Below are positions 2,866 through 10,073 of a stretch of 32,000 bases of DNA, in pieces. Every line of letters begins with the position of its first letter. Position 1 is the first letter of the stretch. The stretch lies in NCBI RefSeq assembly GCF_000195955.2, contig NC_000962.3:300001-332000 (forward strand). The letters run 5' to 3'. The notes beneath the pieces were generated by a model. It ran no database searches. It was not told where the DNA came from and saw nothing but the letters and a program-made list of their open reading frames with translations. A program made the translations under genes and the position numbers. The DNA is from Mycobacterium tuberculosis H37Rv. GTDB taxonomy: Bacteria > Actinomycetota > Actinomycetes > Mycobacteriales > Mycobacteriaceae.

Positions 2866-5427
2866 ATGCCTACGGCTGGGAGTTCGCGCGCGCCTGCCGC
2901 GGCTCGCGAGATCGTCGTGGTCGGCCACGGCATGGTGGGCCATCGGCTGGTCGAAGCGGTGCGTGCCCGTGACGCGGACGGGTCGCTGCGGATCACGGTG
3001 CTGGCCGAGGAGGGCGATGCGGCCTATGACCGGGTCGGCCTGACGTCCTATACCGAAAGCTGGGACCGCGCCCTGTTGGCCTTGCCGGGTAACGATTACG
3101 CCGGTGACCAGCGGGTTCGGTTGCTACTAAACACCCGAGTCACCCAGATTGACCGGGCAACCAAGTCGGTGGTCACCGCGGCAGGGCAACGGCATCGCTA
3201 CGACACCCTGGTGCTGGCCACCGGCTCCTACGCATTCGTCCCGCCGGTGCCCGGCCACGACCTGCCCGCGTGCCACGTCTACCGCACCTTTGACGATCTC
3301 GACGCTATCCGCGCCGGCGCCCAGCGCACCCTGGACGGCGGTCACACCGATGGCGGGGTGGTTATCGGTGGCGGCCTGCTGGGCCTGGAAGCCGCCAATG
3401 CGCTGCGCCAGTTCGGGTTGCAGACACACGTCGTCGAGATGATGCCACGATTGATGGCCCAACAGATCGACGAGGCCGGGGGTGCACTACTGGCCAGGAT
3501 GATCGCCGATCTCGGGATCGCGGTGCACGTCGGGACCGGTACCGAGTCGATCGAGTCGGTGAAGCATTCGGATGGCTCGGTGTGGGCGCGGGTTCGCCTG
3601 AGCGACGGCGAGGTGATCGATGCTGGGGTGGTGATCTTTGCCGCCGGCATCCGGCCGCGCGACGAGTTGGCCAGGGCGGCGGGGCTGGCGATCGGCGACC
3701 GGGGCGGTGTGCTCACCGACTTGTCCTGCCGGACAAGCGATCCCGATATCTACGCGGTCGGCGAAGTCGCCGCGATAGACGGGCGGTGTTACGGCCTGGT
3801 CGGGCCCGGATACACCAGCGCCGAGGTGGTGGCCGACCGACTGCTGGACGGGTCGGCCGAGTTCCCCGAAGCGGACCTGTCGACCAAACTCAAGCTGTTG
3901 GGTGTCGACGTCGCCAGCTTCGGCGACGCGATGGGGGCAACCGAGAACTGCCTCGAGGTTGTCATCAATGACGCGGTGAAGCGCACATATGCCAAGTTGG
4001 TGCTCTCCGACGACGCCACCACGCTGCTCGGTGGCGTGCTGGTGGGCGATGCCTCGTCGTACGGGGTGCTGCGGCCGATGGTCGGCGCCGAACTGCCCGG
4101 GGATCCCCTGGCGCTGATCGCGCCGGCCGGATCTGGGGCCGGCGCTGGCGCTTTAGGTGTTGGGGCGCTGCCGGATTCGGCCCAGATCTGCTCGTGCAAC
4201 AACGTCACCAAGGGCGAGCTGAAGTGCGCGATTGCCGACGGTTGTGGGGACGTTCCCGCGCTGAAGTCATGCACCGCGGCCGGCACGTCGTGTGGGTCGT
4301 GCGTGCCGCTGCTCAAGCAGCTGCTAGAAGCCGAGGGTGTGGAGCAGTCCAAGGCGCTGTGCGAGCACTTCAGCCAGTCGCGCGCGGAGCTTTTTGAAAT
4401 CATCACCGCCACCGAAGTCCGGACTTTCTCCGGGTTGCTTGACCGCTTTGGACGCGGAAAGGGTTGCGACATCTGCAAACCCGTGGTCGCCTCTATCCTG
4501 GCATCCACCGGCTCCGACCACATTTTGGACGGCGAGCAGGCCTCGCTACAAGATTCCAACGACCACTTCCTGGCCAACATCCAGAAGAACGGCAGTTACT
4601 CGGTGGTGCCGAGGGTGCCTGGCGGTGACATCAAGCCAGAACACCTGATTTTGATCGGCCAGATCGCACAGGACTTCGGCCTCTACACCAAGATCACCGG
4701 CGGTCAGCGGATCGACTTGTTCGGCGCCCGGGTGGATCAGCTGCCCTTGATCTGGCAGCGACTGGTTGATGGCGGCATGGAATCTGGGCACGCCTACGGC
4801 AAGGCGGTGCGGACCGTGAAGAGCTGCGTGGGCAGCGACTGGTGCCGCTACGGTCAGCAGGATTCGGTGCAGCTGGCCATCGACCTGGAACTGCGTTATC
4901 GCGGGCTACGGGCACCGCACAAAATAAAGCTGGGCGTCTCGGGTTGCGCGCGGGAATGCGCCGAGGCGCGCGGCAAGGATGTGGGCGTGATCGCCACCGA
5001 GAAAGGCTGGAACCTTTACGTCGCCGGCAACGGCGGCATGACGCCCAAGCACGCTCAACTACTGGCCAGCGACCTCGACAAAGAGACGCTCATCCGCTAC
5101 ATCGACCGCTTTCTCATTTACTACATCCGCACGGCCGACCGGCTGCAGCGAACCGCGCCATGGGTGGAATCGCTTGGGCTGGACCATGTGCGCGAGGTGG
5201 TCTGCGAGGACTCGCTGGGTCTGGCCGAGGAATTCGAGGCCGCGATGCAACGCCATGTCGCCAACTACAAGTGCGAGTGGAAGGGCGTGCTGGAGGACCC
5301 GGACAAGCTGTCCCGGTTCGTTTCCTTCGTCAACGCCCCCGATGCCGTCGACTCGACGGTGACCTTCACCGAGCGTGCCGGGCGCAAAGTACCTGTGTCC
5401 ATTGGTATCCCGCGGGTCCGATCATGA
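2866..5427 (+). CDS. nirB: Assimilatory NAD(P)H nitrite reductase large subunit NirB
   Basis: N-terminal FAD/NAD fold (EIVVVGHGMVGHR, VVIGGGLLGLEAA), BFD-like 2Fe-2S motifs (CSCNNVTKGELKCAI, CGSCVP) and a siroheme/4Fe-4S region (SCVGSDWCRYG, GVSGCARECAEA). Start chosen at the internal ATG 2866 (MPTAGSS, 853 aa) rather than the track start 2812. Confidence 0.93.
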   Translation: MPTAGSSRAPAAAREIVVVGHGMVGHRLVEAVRARDADGSLRITVLAEEGDAAYDRVGLTSYTESWDRALLALPGNDYAGDQRVRLLLNTRVTQIDRATKSVVTAAGQRHRYDTLVLATGSYAFVPPVPGHDLPACHVYRTFDDLDAIRAGAQRTLDGGHTDGGVVIGGGLLGLEAANALRQFGLQTHVVEMMPRLMAQQIDEAGGALLARMIADLGIAVHVGTGTESIESVKHSDGSVWARVRLSDGEVIDAGVVIFAAGIRPRDELARAAGLAIGDRGGVLTDLSCRTSDPDIYAVGEVAAIDGRCYGLVGPGYTSAEVVADRLLDGSAEFPEADLSTKLKLLGVDVASFGDAMGATENCLEVVINDAVKRTYAKLVLSDDATTLLGGVLVGDASSYGVLRPMVGAELPGDPLALIAPAGSGAGAGALGVGALPDSAQICSCNNVTKGELKCAIADGCGDVPALKSCTAAGTSCGSCVPLLKQLLEAEGVEQSKALCEHFSQSRAELFEIITATEVRTFSGLLDRFGRGKGCDICKPVVASILASTGSDHILDGEQASLQDSNDHFLANIQKNGSYSVVPRVPGGDIKPEHLILIGQIAQDFGLYTKITGGQRIDLFGARVDQLPLIWQRLVDGGMESGHAYGKAVRTVKSCVGSDWCRYGQQDSVQLAIDLELRYRGLRAPHKIKLGVSGCARECAEARGKDVGVIATEKGWNLYVAGNGGMTPKHAQLLASDLDKETLIRYIDRFLIYYIRTADRLQRTAPWVESLGLDHVREVVCEDSLGLAEEFEAAMQRHVANYKCEWKGVLEDPDKLSRFVSFVNAPDAVDSTVTFTERAGRKVPVSIGIPRVRS

Positions 5428-5452
5428 AGTCCGGGAGGACAAAGGAGGGACT

Positions 5453-5809
5453 GTGACGCTTCTCAACGACATTCAGGTATGGACCACCGCCTGCGCATAC
5501 GACCATCTCATTCCGGGACGTGGTGTCGGGGTGTTACTCGATGACGGTAGTCAGGTGGCACTGTTCCGGCTCGACGACGGCTCGGTGCACGCGGTCGGTA
5601 ACGTCGACCCGTTCTCCGGTGCTGCGGTGATGTCCCGCGGCATCGTCGGTGATCGCGGAGGTCGCGCCATGGTGCAATCGCCGATCCTGAAGCAGGCTTT
5701 CGCGCTCGACGATGGCTCGTGCCTCGACGATCCGCGCGTTTCGGTGCCGGTGTATCCGGCGCGCGTCACACCCGAAGGCCGCATTCAGGTCGCGCGGGTA
5801 GCGGTCTAG
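5453..5809 (+). CDS. nirD: Nitrite reductase small subunit NirD
   Basis: 118-aa product from GTG 5453, preceded by aaaggaggga (strong SD). NirD/Rieske-like fold sequence (VWTTACAYDHLIPGRGVGVLL...VALFRL). It starts 25 nt after the nirB stop. Confidence 0.88.
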   Translation: MTLLNDIQVWTTACAYDHLIPGRGVGVLLDDGSQVALFRLDDGSVHAVGNVDPFSGAAVMSRGIVGDRGGRAMVQSPILKQAFALDDGSCLDDPRVSVPVYPARVTPEGRIQVARVAV

Positions 5810-5824
5810 CTCACCCCGCGAACC

Positions 5825-6349
5825 TCACAGCTTGAGCACACGTCCGGCGATGACCAGATGTACCTCATCGCAGACGGCTGCCACGCGTCGGTTGATTGTG
5901 CCCAGTAGATCGCGAAACAGCACGCCCGAAGAATGGGATGGCACCACCCCGAGGCCGACCTCGTTCGTCACCACGATCGCAGTGGGCAATCCGGTCAGCG
6001 CGGCGCACAACCCGTCGAGCCGTGCCTCGAGGACGGCGTAGACGTCCGCGGTCGCAGCAGACCACAACGCCTCGCCATCCATGATGGCCGTCAGCCAGGT
6101 GCCCAAGCAGTCCACGAGCACGGGACTTCGTGCCTCGGACAAAGCCGTCGCGACGTCGGCCGTTTCCACCGTTAGCCAGGTCGGTGGGCGGCGAGCGCGA
6201 TGCAGTGCGACCCGGGCGTCCCAATCGGGATCGCTGCCAGCGGCCGGGCGGCCAGGCGCGACGTAGACGACGTCGGCCGCATCGCCCAACAACGCTTCGG
6301 CGTGCGTGGACTTTCCCGAGCGGACGCCGCCAGTGACCAGTATCCGCAC
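5825..6349 (-). CDS. cobU: Adenosylcobinamide kinase / adenosylcobinamide-phosphate guanylyltransferase CobU
   Basis: 174-aa ORF with P-loop MRILVTGGVRSGKST. It starts 24 nt downstream of cobQ1. Confidence 0.9.
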   Translation of the reverse strand: MRILVTGGVRSGKSTHAEALLGDAADVVYVAPGRPAAGSDPDWDARVALHRARRPPTWLTVETADVATALSEARSPVLVDCLGTWLTAIMDGEALWSAATADVYAVLEARLDGLCAALTGLPTAIVVTNEVGLGVVPSHSSGVLFRDLLGTINRRVAAVCDEVHLVIAGRVLKL

Positions 6350-6373
6350 CGGGTCATCGTAGGTGGGGCGGCC

Positions 6374-7858
6374 TCATGGCGCGCCCGGAGCGAGAAAGGG
6401 CAAGGTCGGCGGGCAACCATGGCGGGCCAGGTTGAGCAGCGCATCGACGTCGAGGTGTCGTTCGACGAGATCGCCGAGCAGGTCGAGGCGGCGCTCGCGT
6501 GCGGCCAGGAAGCATGAGCCCGACGGGGCGAGGCCGAGCGTCTCTCGCAGGAAGGCCTCGCGCAGGGCGTCGCCTTCCAACGAGCCGTGCCACATGGTGC
6601 CGAACACCGGTCCGTCGCGCGCGCCGCCGAGGAACTCCTCGGCGGTGTCACCGCGGGTGATCCGGCCGTGGTGAATCTCGTACCCCGACGCGGGCACACC
6701 GAGTCCTTCGCCGCGCGGTAGCCGCAGCACCTTGTGGGGGGAAAATGCGGTCTCCACGTCGAGCAAACCCAAGCCCTCGACCTCGGTCACCTGCCCTCCC
6801 GGACCTTCGATGCCGTACGGGTCGCGAATCACCCGGCCCAGCATCTGGAACCCGCCACAAATGCCGAGCAGCGGCTTGCCCGCCGCAACATGCACCAGCA
6901 GCGCACGATCTAGGTCTCGCGCCCTCAGCCAGGCTAGATCGGCGATCGTTGCCCGGGTGCCCGGCAACACGATCAGATCGGCATCGTCCAGCGCGCGGGG
7001 GTCGGAAGCGAACACGACATCCAAGTCGGGCTCAAGACCCAATGCGTCGACATCGGTGAAGTTGCTGATTCGTGGCAGGCGCACGACGGCTACCCGGCGG
7101 GCCCCGGTGCCCGCCGCGCGCCGGCCCTGTAGGTCGAGGGCATCTTCGGAGTCCAGCCAGAGGTCGGGGTGCCACGGCAGGGTGCCGTACACCCTGCGCC
7201 CGGTGACCCGTTCCAGGTCGCGCAGACCTGGCGCCAGCAGGTCGGAGTCGCCCCGAAACTTATTGACCACAAACCCCGCGACCAGCGCCTGGTCCTCGGC
7301 AGCCAGCAACGCGACGGTGCCCAGGAACGCAGCGAACACCCCGCCGCGGTCGATGTCACCGACGACGATGGTCGGCAGTCCCGCATGACGGGCAAGCCCC
7401 ATGTTGACGTAGTCACCTGCGCGCAGGTTGATTTCGGCCGGGCTGCCGGCGCCCTCCGCGACAACGACGTCGTAGCGGGCGGCGAGGGCGTCGAAGGCGC
7501 GGCATGCGGCCTCGGCGAGCGCTCGCCGCCCCGCACACCAGCTTGACGACGCCACCTCGCCCCAGGGCTTGCCCATCAACACCACGTGGCTGCGGTGATC
7601 ACTGGCCGGCTTGAGCAAGACCGGGTTCATCGCCGCCTCGGGCGTGGTCCTAGCCGCGAGTGCCTGCACCCATTGCGCCCGACCGATCTCCACGCCCGTG
7701 CCGTCGGGGCCTCGGCAGACCATCGAGTTGTTGGACATGTTCTGCGCCTTAAACGGCGCCACCCGCACACCGCGTCGGGCCAACGCGCGGCACAGCCCCG
7801 CGGTCACGGCGCTCTTACCGGCGTCGCTTGTCGTACCCGCGACCAGCAGACCCGACAT
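6374..7858 (-). CDS. cobQ1: Cobyric acid synthase CobQ
   Basis: 494 aa. N-terminal dethiobiotin-synthase-like ATPase (VAGTTSDAGKSAVTAGL) and C-terminal class-I glutamine amidotransferase (LLGICGGFQMLG, YEIHHGR). Confidence 0.92.
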   Translation of the reverse strand: MSGLLVAGTTSDAGKSAVTAGLCRALARRGVRVAPFKAQNMSNNSMVCRGPDGTGVEIGRAQWVQALAARTTPEAAMNPVLLKPASDHRSHVVLMGKPWGEVASSSWCAGRRALAEAACRAFDALAARYDVVVAEGAGSPAEINLRAGDYVNMGLARHAGLPTIVVGDIDRGGVFAAFLGTVALLAAEDQALVAGFVVNKFRGDSDLLAPGLRDLERVTGRRVYGTLPWHPDLWLDSEDALDLQGRRAAGTGARRVAVVRLPRISNFTDVDALGLEPDLDVVFASDPRALDDADLIVLPGTRATIADLAWLRARDLDRALLVHVAAGKPLLGICGGFQMLGRVIRDPYGIEGPGGQVTEVEGLGLLDVETAFSPHKVLRLPRGEGLGVPASGYEIHHGRITRGDTAEEFLGGARDGPVFGTMWHGSLEGDALREAFLRETLGLAPSGSCFLAARERRLDLLGDLVERHLDVDALLNLARHGCPPTLPFLAPGAP

Positions 7859-7876: not shown

Positions 7877-9547
7877 TCACTCCACCCGGGTCGCTGAGTC
7901 GGTGTCCCAGGTTCCGGGCATCATTGGCGTGCGTGGGCTGCCGCCGAACGCGTCGTTGGGTAACGTGATCAGTCCTGCGACTTGTCCGGGACTGGCCTTG
8001 TGGGTTGTTCCGGCGAAACCCAGGGTTCCCGCTCCTTGAGGCGAACCCGTCGGGTCGTGGCCGGTTTCGGGGTCTAAATCCAGGTATTCGTAACCGCGGC
8101 CGAGCTGTTTGATCTTTGGCCGCCGACGCCGCTGCGGTTGAACCTGTTCCTCGGGCGCCGCCGCGGCCGCTGGGGCCTCGGCGCTGTCGGGTTCCGGCGT
8201 CTTCTTTCGAACGCCGGTGCCGACGGCCTTCCTGGCCTGCGCCGCCGAGTTCAGGTCACCCACCAGGTACCCGAAGCTTTGTATGCCGGCTCCGGTCACC
8301 GGCGGCGGGGCGGTCACCGGCGGCGGTGGCGGCCCGGGCGGGGGCGTCGGCGCGGTCACGGCCGTGGGGGCCGGGGCTGGGGCTGGAGTTGGGGTGGGGG
8401 TCGGGATACTCGGGGCAATCGCCGCGACCGGCGGGATGACGGGCGGCGCGGATGGCGGGATGCCAACCAGGCCCGCCAGCCCAGACAAGCCCGCGAAGCC
8501 GCCTGCTGCACTCGCAGGGGCAAGGGTCAACGGCGCCAGCGGGGCGGCTAGCAGGGGCAGCGCCGCCGGGAGCAACGCAAGAGTTTGCTCGAGCAGCGTT
8601 TTAACCAGCGCGATGGTATCGGTGATGATCGTGCCAATGGCTTCGACCGTGGTGAACATCAGGGTAAAAGCGATAGTTGCGGGATTGCCCGACGCGAACG
8701 CCGCCGCCAGATCCGCCCCGATGAATGCGAAGGTTTGCGACAGGAAGGCGACATAAGATCCGATGTCCATGGGGTAGCCAAGGGCGAACGCAATGTTGGC
8801 CGGGCTTAGGAAGGTTAGCGGATTACCCAGCGAGGGCAGCCACGGATCAAATCCGGAAAACATCGCTTGCAAAAAGGGGAGGTTGGTCAGCCAGTTGATG
8901 AACGGTTGTATAACGTTGTTGTAGAAGTCGGTATACCCGATCTTCTGCAACCATTGCAGCCATTCCTGGACTTGGTTCGGCTCGTCGGAAGCCGCTGTCG
9001 GCGCGTTGGCTTTCACGATCTGGGGGGCTGGGGTGGTCTGCGGTGCGGCGGCCACCGCCGCGGTCGAGACCGCTTGATAGCTGGCCATCGTGGTGGCGGC
9101 CTGGATCCACATCCGCGCGTAGTCGGACTCGTTGAGCGCGATCGGGATGGTGTTGATGCCGAAGAAGTTCGTCGCCATCAGCACGCCGTGGAGGGCGTGG
9201 TTGGCGCCCAGCTCGGCCAACGTTGGCATCGCGGCCAAGGCGGTGCCGTAGGCGGTGGCCGCGGTTTCTTGCCGGGTGGCCATGGCCGCGCTGTTAGCGC
9301 TGGCCTGCACCAGCCACGCCAGATAAGGGGTATGGGCGGCCACGTAAACCGCGGCGGTCGGGCCGTCCCAGGTGCCGGCCTGTACGGCGGCCAACAGCGC
9401 GGCCAGCTCGTCGGCCGTCTCCGCGTAGGCGATGCTCAACGAGTGCCACCCCTCGGCCGACACCAGCAGCGGACCGGGCCCAGGCCCGCTGCTTAGCAGC
9501 GCCGAGTGCACCTCTGGGGGCGAAGCCATCCAGATCGGGGCGGTCAT
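7877..9547 (-). CDS. PPE2: PPE family protein PPE2 (PPE-PPW subgroup)
   Basis: 556 aa. Pro-Pro-Glu at residues 10-12 (MASPPEVHS) within a ~180-aa PPE domain, a hydrophobic central region, a Pro/Thr/Ala low-complexity tract, a basic RRRRPKIKQ at 473-481, and GFAGT plus PMMPGTW (PxxPxxW) near the C-terminus. Its stop lies 18 nt upstream of the cobQ1 start. Confidence 0.93.
8293..8328. repeat. 18-bp tandem duplication (2 copies, 17/18 identical) inside PPE2
   Basis: cggtcaccggcggcgggg is followed directly by cggtcaccggcggcggtg. It encodes the repeated [12 protein letters not shown] peptide. Confidence 0.8.
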
Positions 9548-9651
9548 CGGCGGCTGACCGCCGGCGGAGGTGTCGTCGCGTCGCGAGCAGCCACGTTAAG
9601 GCCCAGCAGCGTGGTGGTGGCCCGACCGCTAGACAAGGTTTGGAGCGTCAT
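9544..9651 (-). CDS. 35-codon upstream ORF in the PPE2 leader; its stop overlaps the PPE2 start (ATGA)
   Basis: Minus strand: ATG (9651-9649) ACG CTC CAA ... AGC CGC CGA TGA gives [38 protein letters not shown] (9546-9544) overlaps the PPE2 ATG (9547-9545). It lies between the riboswitch aptamer and PPE2. About 74% GC3. Confidence 0.5.
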
Positions 9652-9654
9652 GAC

Positions 9655-9840
9655 CGGTTAGCTTTCTCGGGGTACACCGCCCCGGGTGGCAGGACGCGAT
9701 GACGCGAGTCTCCTGGCTCCCGGATCGTTGCTTGCCTCGCCTTCCAGCCTGTGGCCGTGGCTTACGAGGGTCGCTCCCCGGTGACAGTGGCGGGACCGCG
9801 CCGGATTCTCACCGGCTTCCTGCATCGTCATCGCCTGACG
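9655..9840 (-). promoter_or_regulatory. Cobalamin (B12) riboswitch controlling PPE2-cobQ1-cobU
   Basis: The minus strand carries the conserved core GGAAGCCGGTGAGAATCCGGCGCGGTCCCGCCACTGT (9820-9784) and a B12 box GAGCCAGGAGACTCGCG (9719-9703). A 9-bp closing helix pairs GCGATGACG (9834-9826) with CGTCATCGC (9704-9696). A possible -10 TATTCT lies at 9849-9844. Confidence 0.85.
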
Positions 9841-10073
9841 GGAAGAATATTGGCATGCAGAGCGTGGATTTGCACGTTGAGCGGCATTTGCCAAGCAGGG
9901 GTCGGTCACATCGCACGGTCGCAACAGTCACATGTGTCACTGCACTAGGCGACATCCGATCTGCCCAGCTCTCAGCGACAGGCGCCTGGCCGGCGGTTTT
10001 GTTCCCAAGTTGGTCGTGGCTGTGCGGGATTGGAGGCGGCGTTGACCTGCAGAAACCGAGTTGTCGCGCTTAG
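9699..10073 (+). CDS. Doubtful 124-aa hypothetical ORF (Rv0257-like), probably non-coding
   Basis: An open frame exists, but its first ~140 nt are antisense to the riboswitch aptamer. The product is Arg/Ser/Pro/Cys-rich with no recognisable domain, and no SD is seen. Listed only because it is a typical annotation call. Confidence 0.15.
   Translation: MTRVSWLPDRCLPRLPACGRGLRGSLPGDSGGTAPDSHRLPASSSPDGKNIGMQSVDLHVERHLPSRGRSHRTVATVTCVTALGDIRSAQLSATGAWPAVLFPSWSWLCGIGGGVDLQKPSCRA

Follow-up and report, generated by a model that had tools for sequence, protein, structure and literature searches.

The closest described counterpart of the locus analysed here is uPPE2, an upstream open reading frame (uORF) between a B12 riboswitch and ppe2 of Mycobacterium tuberculosis (Kipkorir et al., NAR 2024, PMC11260477; reviewed in PMC12713380). 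Binding of B12 to the leader was measured there by in-line probing (Kd about 446 uM for AdoB12), and repression by B12 was determined in lacZ assays with the wild type and the delta-cobK strain; M. smegmatis was the host for the reporters. When fused to lacZ (uPPE2'-lacZ), the uORF was expressed and regulated by B12, again in the wild type versus delta-cobK. Removal of the uORF Shine–Dalgarno sequence (noSD) or a change of its AUG (A189C) nearly abolished PPE2'-LacZ, while expression and B12 sensing were both lowered when the uORF stop was removed or shifted by 3–7 codons in either direction (PMC11260477). In FLAG-tagging experiments, the uORF and PPE2'-LacZ products were mostly separate and LacZ was mainly untagged; a minor frameshifted uORF–PPE2'-LacZ fusion product was also detected. 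The published conservation analysis was limited to leaders of >95% identity (PMC11260477).

The original prediction, made for the stretch of DNA above, was that the riboswitch gates translation of the uORF and that PPE2 is expressed by termination–reinitiation coupling. The former agrees with the B12 response of uPPE2'-lacZ; the latter is in the main consistent with the SD, AUG, and stop mutants and with the separate products. The reporter experiment proposed along with it, in which the uORF start is mutated or its stop moved, has its counterpart in the published constructs, where PPE2'-LacZ fell (PMC11260477).

Identity and anatomy of the leader

The window (the whole stretch of DNA analysed, 32,000 nt of strain H37Rv) contained the features listed below. 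We take its first base to be H37Rv base 300001, and the genomic positions 309651, 309547, and 309649 used below are based on this assumption.

5825..6349, minus strand: cobU, an ORF with a Pfam CobU match of 163.5 bits; starts 24 nt past the cobQ1 stop
6374..7858, minus strand: cobQ1-type gene, an ORF with Pfam GATase_3 and CbiA matches; starts 18 nt past the PPE2 stop, without overlap
7877..9547, minus strand: PPE2 (Rv0256c), 556 aa; Pfam PPE PF00823, 196.9 bits, plus PPE-PPW
9547-9544, minus strand: ATGA stop/start overlap, read from the sequence; its disruption lowers PPE2'-LacZ (PMC11260477)
9539..9562, minus strand: predicted junction stem, GGCGGUCA (9562-9555) with UGACCGCC (9546-9539), in the MFE and centroid folds
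9562..9570, minus strand: Pro-Pro-Pro codons CCT CCG CCG of the uORF, from its translation; specific to M. tuberculosis and absent from orthologous uORFs
9544..9651, minus strand: uORF uPPE2 (MT0270 in CDC1551), 35 codons plus TGA; +189..+296 of the published leader
9662..9668, minus strand: uORF Shine–Dalgarno sequence GAGAAAG, 10 nt 5' of the ATG; -5.1 kcal/mol against the anti-SD
9666..9686, minus strand: expression-platform hairpin, predicted in every fold; agrees with the alpha-TIR/TIR hairpin of PMC11260477
9705-9697, minus strand: 3' strand of P1, CGUCAUCGC, probably paired with GCGAUGACG (9834-9826), to which it is perfectly complementary over 9 nt
9686..9867, minus strand: cobalamin (B12) riboswitch aptamer, Rfam RF00174, 93.3 bits, exceeding the gathering score of 31.5; E=3.4e-22

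The ORF listing placed the PPE frame at 7877..9547 and, between it and the riboswitch, a 35-codon uORF with its ATG at 9651; the original prediction of this frame was thus confirmed on the minus strand, and the peptide was exactly as given. The predicted two-base overlap was found as well: in the junction sequence CGCCGATGACCGC, the uORF TGA (9546-9544) and the PPE2 ATG (9547-9545) have T and G in common. The PPE2 protein was identical to PPE2 of the MTBC, and the uORF peptide exactly matched AAK44488.1 (MT0270 of strain CDC1551). With a transcription start site (TSS) at 9839, the published leader numbering agreed with the window for 15 of the 16 bases compared: A189 falls on the first base of the uORF ATG and A296 on the last base of its TGA, while G121-G135, A131-C134, and U164/G165 were also compared. 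The element is identical to the published uPPE2 in locus, TSS-relative coordinates, and peptide. The observation is therefore correct but already known, since uPPE2 was published by Kipkorir et al. (NAR 2024, PMC11260477).

Because the TSS of the published numbering lies at 9839, bases 9867-9840 of the aptamer match are upstream of it. A fused P1–P3 arm has been described for this aptamer (PMC11260477). The distance of 44 nt, originally given from the closing helix to the uORF ATG, varies with the end point chosen for the helix: the end of the Rfam model lies about 34–35 nt and that of the 9-bp P1 45 nt before the ATG. Just 3' of P1, GCGUC (9697-9693) is complementary to GACGC (9649-9645) at the uORF start; this pairing occurs in the MFE fold, and only part of the orthologues have it.

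The expression-platform hairpin consists of a 5' arm CCCGGGG (9686-9680), a loop CGGUGUA (9679-9673), which is L13 of the published kissing loop (PMC11260477), and a 3' arm CCCCGAG (9672-9666), overlapping the uORF Shine–Dalgarno sequence at its first bases (GAG). It was nearly invariant across the 36 mycobacterial leaders compared (85.7% of cells paired), and no covariation was detected in it among these leaders because the sequence is too conserved. In single-sequence folding, the energies of the leader, the platform, and the uORF were no better than those of dinucleotide shuffles (z from -0.5 to +0.2).

The uORF Shine–Dalgarno sequence was conserved with a spacer of 9–13 nt in 35/36 leaders, being GAGAGAG in most other species. 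The 25 nt 5' of the PPE2 start (CACCTCCGCCGGCGGTCAGCCGCCG) had been predicted to lack such a site; a purine-rich run is indeed absent, yet GGCGG (9562-9558) pairs with the anti-SD at -6.2 kcal/mol and 10-nt spacing, nominally no weaker than GAGAAAG of the uORF. Coupled orthologous PPE starts had weaker anti-SD pairing on average (median of -5.6 kcal/mol versus -7.6 kcal/mol in PPE relatives without an aptamer within 600 nt upstream, P=0.015), and several orthologues carried stronger purine-rich sites, down to -11 kcal/mol, 5' of the coupled start. The CCTCC described as anti-SD-like is present in these 25 nt but is simply part of the Pro-Pro-Pro codons, and a role of its own was not supported; the C-terminal polyproline stretch was also noted in PMC11260477.

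The suggested extension of coupling to cobQ1-cobU was not obvious, as the gaps of 18 and 24 nt leave no overlap and the cobQ1 ATG is preceded by GGGAGACGG in the PPE2–cobQ1 intergenic sequence. We found no ribosome-profiling or start-mapping support for the uORF in the supplement text of Smith et al. 2022, from which 309651, 309547, 309649, and "Rv0256c" were absent.

Conservation and origin of the frame

The comparison covered 36 leaders, i.e., that of M. tuberculosis and those of 35 further mycobacterial genomes in which a PPE2 orthologue is preceded by this riboswitch; the genome scan returned no M. marinum, M. kansasii, M. canettii, or other close relatives of M. tuberculosis. All 18 related loci scanned with Rfam had RF00174 at 80–100 bits. 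The hairpin, the Shine–Dalgarno sequence, and the ATG were nearly invariant. The ATG, which keeps a fixed distance to the aptamer, opened a frame of 12–64 codons reaching the PPE start in 30/36 leaders; 29 of these frames ended in an NTGA overlap and one in a one-base UGAUG overlap. This connection was kept in spite of leader lengths varying from 66 to 222 nt: among 26 distinct spacings, 22 were in the frame linking the ATG to the overlap (P=1e-7). The conservation test of the frame and the ATGA junction, proposed together with the original prediction, was thus positive, and the uORF frame is maintained across species far beyond chance.

The last sense codon of the uORF was CGA in 25/29 leaders, reflecting a conserved CG before the PPE start. 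The peptides (12–64 aa) fell into unrelated sequence groups in which nothing but the start, the reading frame, and the final codon was kept, and none had a Pfam match. Neither a conserved peptide nor regulatory codons, as in stalling or attenuation leader peptides, were found, the PPP motif being specific to M. tuberculosis. It is the reading frame, not the peptide, that is under selection. Departures from this layout were found in M. simulans, M. szulgai, and M. angelicum, where the PPE starts directly on the riboswitch-controlled ATG without a uORF, and in one locus (L021-type) with the uORF and PPE frames fused.

In 17 further loci, the riboswitch-controlled ATG opened a full-length gene of an FhuF-like 2Fe-2S protein, overlapped with the PPE start by ATGA/GTGA in 11 of them (e.g., L032). 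Since 13 short uORFs keep the 5' codons (first nine) of this gene, they are truncated relics of it. An origin of the uORF N-termini (M-x-x-P-x-W-V-A) from the PPE N-terminus was also considered and dropped, the FhuF-like 5' end being much closer (ATGTCNCGTCNT..TGGGTGGC). The M. tuberculosis uORF compared with the FhuF-like gene gave 11/27 nt at the anchored 5' end (control mean of 10.8) and 8/21 at the 3' end, and neither a profile HMM search nor a free local alignment was significant; the relic origin is therefore shown for the 13 other uORFs only.

No tblastn match to cobQ/cobU was obtained downstream of PPE2 orthologues in any of 80 related loci; the genes found there vary by species (AMP-binding enzyme, Stf0 sulphotransferase, sigma factor, methyltransferase). 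We give even chances to a scenario in which the relay uORF is a vestige of an ancestral first gene, uPPE2 of M. tuberculosis is a remnant of internal deletion with only its frame to the ATGA selected, and the riboswitch–PPE2 unit predates the linkage to cobQ1-cobU. The last point is the reverse of what has been speculated in print, namely an invasion by ppe2 of a cobQU locus under riboswitch control. What the present analysis adds to PMC11260477 is the wide comparison, together with the variants under direct control and the FhuF-like gene that occupies the place of the uORF.

Proposed relay and competing explanations

The uORF is very probably translated under the gate of the riboswitch, with PPE2 translation dependent on it. 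In the proposed mechanism, without B12, the Shine–Dalgarno sequence (GAGAAAG, 9668-9662) and the AUG (9651) of the uORF would be accessible, and ribosomes would translate its 35 codons. Once B12 is bound, the uORF initiation region would be partly masked by the hairpin CCCGGGG/CCCCGAG (9686-9666), which the kissing loop with the aptamer stabilises, and the hairpin would therefore act as an OFF switch. PPE2 would have no effective ribosome-binding site, and it would be mainly ribosomes terminating at the uORF UGA that restart on the overlapping AUG (AUGA, 9547-9544); PPE2 being translated by ribosomes coming from the uORF, B12 control of the uORF would thereby be handed to PPE2. The act of in-frame translation up to the junction would matter, and the peptide would not. 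Re-initiation by the same ribosome is the probable coupling step, and the relay presumably operates in M. tuberculosis cells as well, the functional tests having been made with reporter fusions in M. smegmatis, not with native PPE2.

The published shifts of the stop cannot tell true re-initiation apart from an unfolding of the PPE2 start with the help of ribosomes. It is possible, but unlikely, that translation of the uORF merely melts the 9562-9555/9546-9539 stem and that fresh 30S subunits initiate at the AUG, perhaps via the weak GGCGG. This 8-bp stem, predicted over the M. tuberculosis junction, encloses the GGCGG and pairs the UG shared by the PPE2 AUG and the uORF UGA; the start region was paired with upstream sequence with P=0.88 versus 0.43 in shuffled sequences, and 0/100 shuffles were as high. 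The anti-SD pairing of GGCGG (-6.2 kcal/mol), the real purine-rich sites before the coupled start of several orthologues, and the only gradual loss of expression in early-stop mutants (PMC11260477) also point in this direction. However, a hairpin burying the PPE2 start was not conserved, with only a weak trend over 32 leaders (mean of 0.61 versus 0.52 shuffled, median rank of 0.28), and the fold energy was ordinary (z=-0.5). Late-stop and no-stop mutants, in which the region is still traversed and opened, lose most expression (PMC11260477); since these losses are the strongest, re-initiation, or occlusion of the start, fits better than simple unfolding. The same mutants bear on a transcriptional role, in which uORF translation would shield the leader from Rho and its loss would lead to premature termination (polarity): they keep ribosomes on the RNA, yet PPE2'-LacZ is lost as strongly as in the start mutants. 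Conditional termination by Rho, associated with translated uORFs, is widespread in M. tuberculosis (bioRxiv 10.1101/2022.06.01.494293, preprint of D'Halluin et al. 2023, PMC10122055, in which ppe2 is not named), the ppe2 leader has a termination site at +178, and the authors of PMC11260477 raised this possibility for ppe2. Shielding alone, however, would not need the exact frame and junction kept in 30 leaders, and we regard this role as improbable.

More improbable still is that MT0270, the uORF product, functions as a small protein of an ordinary two-gene operon with PPE2. MT0270 is annotated in CDC1551, the FLAG-tagged peptide is detectable (PMC11260477), partial conservation exists among close relatives (PMC11260477, Suppl. 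Fig. S6), and a real FhuF-like gene occupies the uORF position in 17 loci; but the peptides, 12–64 aa long and without a Pfam match, belong to unrelated groups keeping the start, frame, and last codon alone, and the uORF is absent from three species and fused to the PPE in one. A chance open frame without a role has practically no probability left, although high GC makes long stop-free frames common and an ATGA follows of necessity from the Met-Thr start of the PPE (ATG ACC). When the 132-nt leader was shuffled 5000 times with dinucleotides preserved, 0.8% of the sequences contained an ATG frame with 35 or more codons that ended in ATGA, and 22/26 spacings were in frame (P=1e-7); with the uORF required by mutagenesis (PMC11260477), this reading is already refuted by the mutants and the conservation.

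Significance and comparison with known systems

The preferred reading, a riboswitch-gated uORF coupled to PPE2, implies that a metabolite-sensing RNA can control a gene devoid of its own ribosome-binding site via a gated short upstream frame and an overlapping stop/start. When published in 2024, the uPPE2 relay added a new layer of regulation to those known in M. tuberculosis; it is also relevant to the question of how a PPE protein whose function is uncertain comes to be linked to B12 sensing. The mechanism deduced from sequence alone agrees with the experimentally verified one. The natural variants (direct control, in-frame fusion, and a full-length FhuF-like first gene) are ready-made controls for the coupling model; the recurrent pairing of PPE2 with an FhuF-like iron–sulfur protein under B12 control is a lead on PPE2 function, and the comparative results give a testable evolutionary account of the uORF.

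Compared with uPPE2 of PMC11260477, no difference was found: the element (+189 to +296), the 35 codons, the AUGA, the absence of a purine-rich SD before ppe2, and the relay from riboswitch to uORF to PPE2 are the same. A similar design is represented by the short upstream ORF of CsrA/iraD in enterobacteria (Park et al., mBio 2017), which, as cited in PMC11260477, also has the regulator acting at leader-ORF initiation and the main gene coupled to it; there, a protein takes the place of the metabolite-binding RNA as regulator, and neither the organisms nor the sequences are related to those analysed here. A second mycobacterial riboswitch, the Mbox of M. tuberculosis (RNA 2026, PMC12810186), likewise has as its first target a uORF, which precedes an operon containing PE/PPE genes. 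That uORF is described there as conserved and small, the ligand is Mg2+, unlike B12 of ppe2, and Rho-dependent termination is also reported.

The uPPE2–PPE2 junction resembles gene pairs with termination–reinitiation (TeRe) coupling at NUGA/URRUG overlaps (Huber et al., Nat Commun 2019) in its four-base stop/start overlap, in the downstream start without a purine-rich Shine–Dalgarno run, and in the dependence of that start on upstream translation. NUGA overlaps number 515 among the annotated ORFs of M. tuberculosis (bioRxiv 10.1101/2022.06.01.494293). Unlike the TeRe gene pairs, uPPE2 is a short, non-conserved leader frame with riboswitch-gated initiation, and the uPPE2–PPE2 coupling therefore transmits a regulatory signal.

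Anatomy of the ppe2 leader

The cobalamin aptamer was the sole Rfam family found across the entire window. The PPE protein encoded 3' of it had the same sequence as M. tuberculosis complex PPE2, and the 35-aa peptide of the upstream frame (uORF) has already been recorded in strain CDC1551 (hypothetical protein MT0270); therefore, the locus is ppe2-cobQ1-cobU of M. tuberculosis (Mtb).

Features of the ppe2 locus (window positions)
9867..9686, minus strand: cobalamin riboswitch aptamer (Rfam, 93.3 bits; gathering score, 31.5)
9834-9826 with 9705-9697, minus strand: P1, 9 bp, GCGAUGACG with CGUCAUCGC
9668-9662, minus strand: Shine–Dalgarno sequence (SD) of the uORF, GAGAAAG, 10 nt 5' of the ATG (-5.1 kcal/mol against the anti-SD)
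9544..9651, minus strand: uORF, ATG start, 35 aa (ORF listing)
9570-9562, minus strand: Pro-Pro-Pro codons CCT CCG CCG, five codons ahead of the uORF stop
7877..9547, minus strand: PPE protein ORF, 556 aa (ORF listing; PF00823, 196.9 bits, plus PPE-PPW)
7858..6374, minus strand: CobQ-type amidotransferase, cobQ1 (ORF and Pfam)
6349..5825, minus strand: CobU (ORF and Pfam)

The 35-codon frame was recovered with exactly the peptide of the original prediction. At the junction CGCCG-ATGA-CCGC, the uORF stop (9546-9544) and the PPE2 start (9547-9545) have two bases in common, as had been claimed. The ATGA itself is uninformative, since PPE proteins of this kind begin with Met-Thr (ATG ACC), which makes it inevitable. 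Among dinucleotide shuffles of the 132-nt leader (n = 5000), 0.8% had a frame that starts with ATG, spans 35 codons or more, and reaches the ATGA; on its own, in the Mtb leader alone, the frame is moderately unlikely to be due to chance.

The distance from the closing helix to the uORF ATG, predicted as 44 nt, depends on the definition: 45 nt if counted from where the 9-bp P1 ends, 34 nt if counted from where the Rfam model ends. The 25 nt preceding the PPE2 start read as quoted and contain no purine-rich run, but their GGCGG (9562-9558) reaches -6.2 kcal/mol against the anti-SD, nominally at least as strong as the GAGAAAG of the uORF; thus, the absence of an SD concerns the motif and not the energy. 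The anti-SD-like CCTCC is present as well and belongs to the three proline codons. Among the leaders compared, this Pro-Pro-Pro run (9562-9570) occurred in Mtb only. A polyproline pause would set the ribosome over the junction and might alter re-initiation or the minor frameshift fusion.

Control of PPE2 through the uORF

Kipkorir et al. (Nucleic Acids Res 2024) named the frame uPPE2, extending from +189 up to the ppe2 start, and described ppe2 as having no obvious SD and an AUGA common to it and the out-of-frame uORF (PMC11260477). With the transcription start set at 9839, 15 of the 16 bases numbered in that paper fit the window, including A189, A296, the B12 box (G121-G135), and, in the loop of the hairpin, the hypercleaved U164/G165. 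All functional evidence on uPPE2 comes from reporters in M. smegmatis (PMC11260477); a literature search for ribosome-profiling support of the uORF yielded none. Expression of uPPE2'-lacZ exceeded that of PPE2'-lacZ, with B12 regulation (wild type versus delta-cobK M. smegmatis). Replacement of the uORF SD or of its AUG by CUG (A189C) nearly abolished PPE2'-LacZ. Removal of the stop (A296U) reduced both expression and B12 sensing, as did shifting it 3–7 codons upstream or 3–6 downstream, the downstream shifts having the stronger effect. With an N-terminal FLAG tag, the main products were a small peptide on its own and LacZ lacking the tag, indicating termination-reinitiation; a faint fusion-size band was ascribed to stop suppression and frameshift (PMC11260477). 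Such uORF/PPE2 reporter experiments had been proposed in the original prediction; the published ones, in which both the uORF start and the stop position were needed, back its model of a riboswitch-gated uORF with PPE2 made by termination-reinitiation.

B12 binding, regulation, and the dependence of PPE2 on the uORF have been shown by published experiments. We infer that the same ribosome re-initiates at the PPE2 AUG and that the relay also operates in M. tuberculosis itself. In the apo leader, CCGGG, located just 5' of the B12 box, would pair with CCCGG of the hairpin 5' arm, leaving the uORF SD free; the unconstrained MFE structure of +1..+210 contains this pairing, in agreement with the published apo model (PMC11260477). 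Upon B12 binding, the expression-platform hairpin (9686-9666, minus strand) would form with its loop docked on L5 and would partly mask the initiation region of the uORF. Ribosomes translating the uORF would stop at its UGA and begin anew on the AUG that overlaps it.

No stable fold beyond chance was detected in the leader, every segment folding no better than shuffles. Covariation was not found in the hairpin (85.7% of cells paired, 0 with changes on both sides) because it is too conserved. GCGUC (9693-9697, minus strand), directly 3' of P1, is complementary to GACGC (9645-9649, minus strand), i.e., the G of the uORF AUG and the next four bases. The two are paired in the platform MFE structure, lengthening the sequestering hairpin over the start codon; this pairing is possible only in orthologues with a uORF start ATGACGC or ATGGCGC. 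Just 5' of the B12 box (9724-9716, minus strand), Mtb has a G where 35/35 other leaders have an A (CCGGGAG versus CCGAGAG), and this G completes the pairing of the anti-anti-sequestering segment with CCCGG of the hairpin arm.

Conservation of the leader frame and alternative explanations

We analyzed 80 loci encoding PPE2 relatives (L001-L080), one genome per species; Mtb's closest relatives were not returned in this sample. Of the 80 loci, 35 had the same aptamer no more than 600 nt upstream of the PPE start, with Rfam scores of 80–100 bits in 18/18 loci scanned. In the 36 leaders, Mtb included, the platform was nearly invariant: CCCGGGG-CGGNGYA-CCCCGAGAGAG, then 9–13 nt, then ATG. Past the ATG, the leaders (66–222 nt) diverge freely. 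Even so, the ATG opens a stop-free frame of 12–64 codons reaching the PPE start in 30/36 leaders. In 29 of them, its stop is part of an ATGA or GTGA at the PPE start; in one, stop and start share a single base (UGAUG). Conservation of frame and junction across mycobacteria was a test put forward in the original prediction, and the outcome supports it. Among distinct ATG-to-PPE-start spacings, 22/26 were in the coupling frame and none in the third frame (P = 1e-7); for spacings above 10 nt, the ratio was 22/24 (P = 4e-9). A chance frame is excluded.

The uORF peptide was not conserved across groups (MTLQ/MTLH..SS, MAxQF, MSRPAWVAV, others). The frame being kept and the peptide not, selection therefore acts on in-frame translation to the junction and not on its product, and a functional peptide is disfavoured. 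Protection of the leader from Rho by uORF translation is disfavoured too: late-stop and no-stop mutants, as well as northern data, speak against it (PMC11260477). The only serious rival to true re-initiation is ribosome-assisted unfolding that opens the PPE2 start. An 8-bp stem is predicted across the Mtb junction (9562-9555 with 9546-9539, minus strand; GGCGGUCA with UGACCGCC), pairing the UG of the PPE2 AUG and uORF UGA with the sole upstream SD-like sequence; start pairing this strong occurred in 0/100 shuffles. However, the stem is not conserved in orthologues, and the same late-stop and no-stop mutants count against simple unfolding (PMC11260477).

Regarding re-initiation, CG directly precedes the coupled PPE start (9548-9549, minus strand, in Mtb) in 25/29 leaders, which usually makes CGA (Arg) the final sense codon of the uORF; this CG may be a context requirement.

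Several leaders deviated from this arrangement. In M. simulans (L003:2786-3010), M. angelicum, and M. szulgai (L006 and L031:2781-3003), the PPE ORF starts on the riboswitch-controlled ATG itself, 35–36 nt past the Rfam aptamer end, like the Mtb uORF ATG; judging by their leaders, these species have direct riboswitch control and no uORF. The leader frame of Mycobacterium sp. 1423905.2 (L021:2791-2970) runs into PPE, a natural in-frame fusion (MTLPVVPSGLAATPIWFASPPEV). In L001, the stop lies 6 nt ahead of the PPE start, and L034 has ATC where others have the uORF ATG.

Some loci contained a second riboswitch copy (L025:5257-5510, L044:4600-4855, L047:4608-4789, and L063:1703-2015). Short uORFs of 13 aa (L025, L044) and 29 aa (L063) end there in the ATGA of another gene. 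For L025 and L044, this downstream gene is PPE-like (MTA), with junctions ATGACCGCG/ATGACGGCG; for L063 (ATGAGCC), it is not a PPE gene. Thus, the relay module has been duplicated within genomes. An unrelated Rfam hya RNA (RF02992, 80.8 bits) was found about 1.4 kb upstream of the riboswitch in L011:1214-1287 (minus strand).

FhuF-like genes, cobQ1-cobU, and the published model

In 19 further loci, the aptamer was located 0.7–1.5 kb upstream of PPE or elsewhere in the locus, and 17 of these have a gene of 228–416 aa that begins on the same ATG behind the same platform.

Loci with a full-length gene at the uORF position
L032:2318-3004; also L015, L019, L022, L023, L026, L028, L029, L033, L040, L069
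Further loci: L018, L039, L049, L030, L036

Three of these genes were scanned: those of L032 and L069 matched Pfam FhuF_C (26–30 bits; gathering score, 20.5), and the 416-aa fusion of L049 matched FhuF (30.2 bits versus 25.2) and DUF7676. In 11/17 loci, the TGA of the FhuF-like gene is part of an ATGA or GTGA at the PPE start, a junction as in Mtb. CG precedes the start at several FhuF-like/PPE junctions as well. In L018:1730-2467 and L039:1731-2435, the stop of the FhuF-like gene overlaps, as GTGA, the start of a DUF7676 gene that separates it from PPE; in L049:1738-2988, the FhuF-like and DUF7676 genes are joined in one ORF.

Thirteen short uORFs of the MSRPAWVAV group match the FhuF-like gene over its first nine codons at up to 20/27 nt (maximum of 15–17 for in-frame internal control windows), and two uORFs (L038, L041) have retained its final codons too (14 and 16 of 21 nt). 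Therefore, uORFs of this group are truncated remnants of the FhuF-like gene. The Mtb uORF matched its 5' end at 11/27 nt (control mean, 10.8) and its 3' end at 8/21 nt, and HMM and local alignments of the Mtb uORF and its sequence group with the gene were non-significant. A FhuF-like ancestry of the Mtb uORF is not demonstrable from sequence and is suggested by position only. Our literature search found no paper joining FhuF, PPE, and a cobalamin riboswitch in mycobacteria.

The proposed extension of coupling to cobQ1-cobU found no anatomical support: neither gene overlaps the preceding one, the gaps being 18 and 24 nt. No cobQ or cobU homologue was found 3' of the PPE2 relative (about 4650-7600) in any of the 80 loci; thus, the conserved unit is the riboswitch, then the FhuF-like gene or uORF, then PPE2. 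Genes downstream of PPE vary by species (AMP-binding enzyme, Stf0 sulphotransferase, ECF-type sigma factor, methyltransferase). Within this sample, which lacks Mtb's closest relatives, linkage to cobQ1-cobU appears restricted to the lineage of Mtb. Such lineage-specific linkage does not fit the published speculation of a ppe2 invasion into a cobQU locus under riboswitch control.

The riboswitch-uORF-PPE2 mechanism, correctly inferred in the original prediction, is already known, having been published and restated in a 2025 review (PMC12713380). The leader alignment in the original paper included only leaders more than 95% identical (PMC11260477). To this model, our analysis makes modest additions: how widely and in what respects the leader is conserved, natural variants with direct control or a fusion, and evidence that a FhuF-like first gene can leave such relay uORFs behind as remnants.
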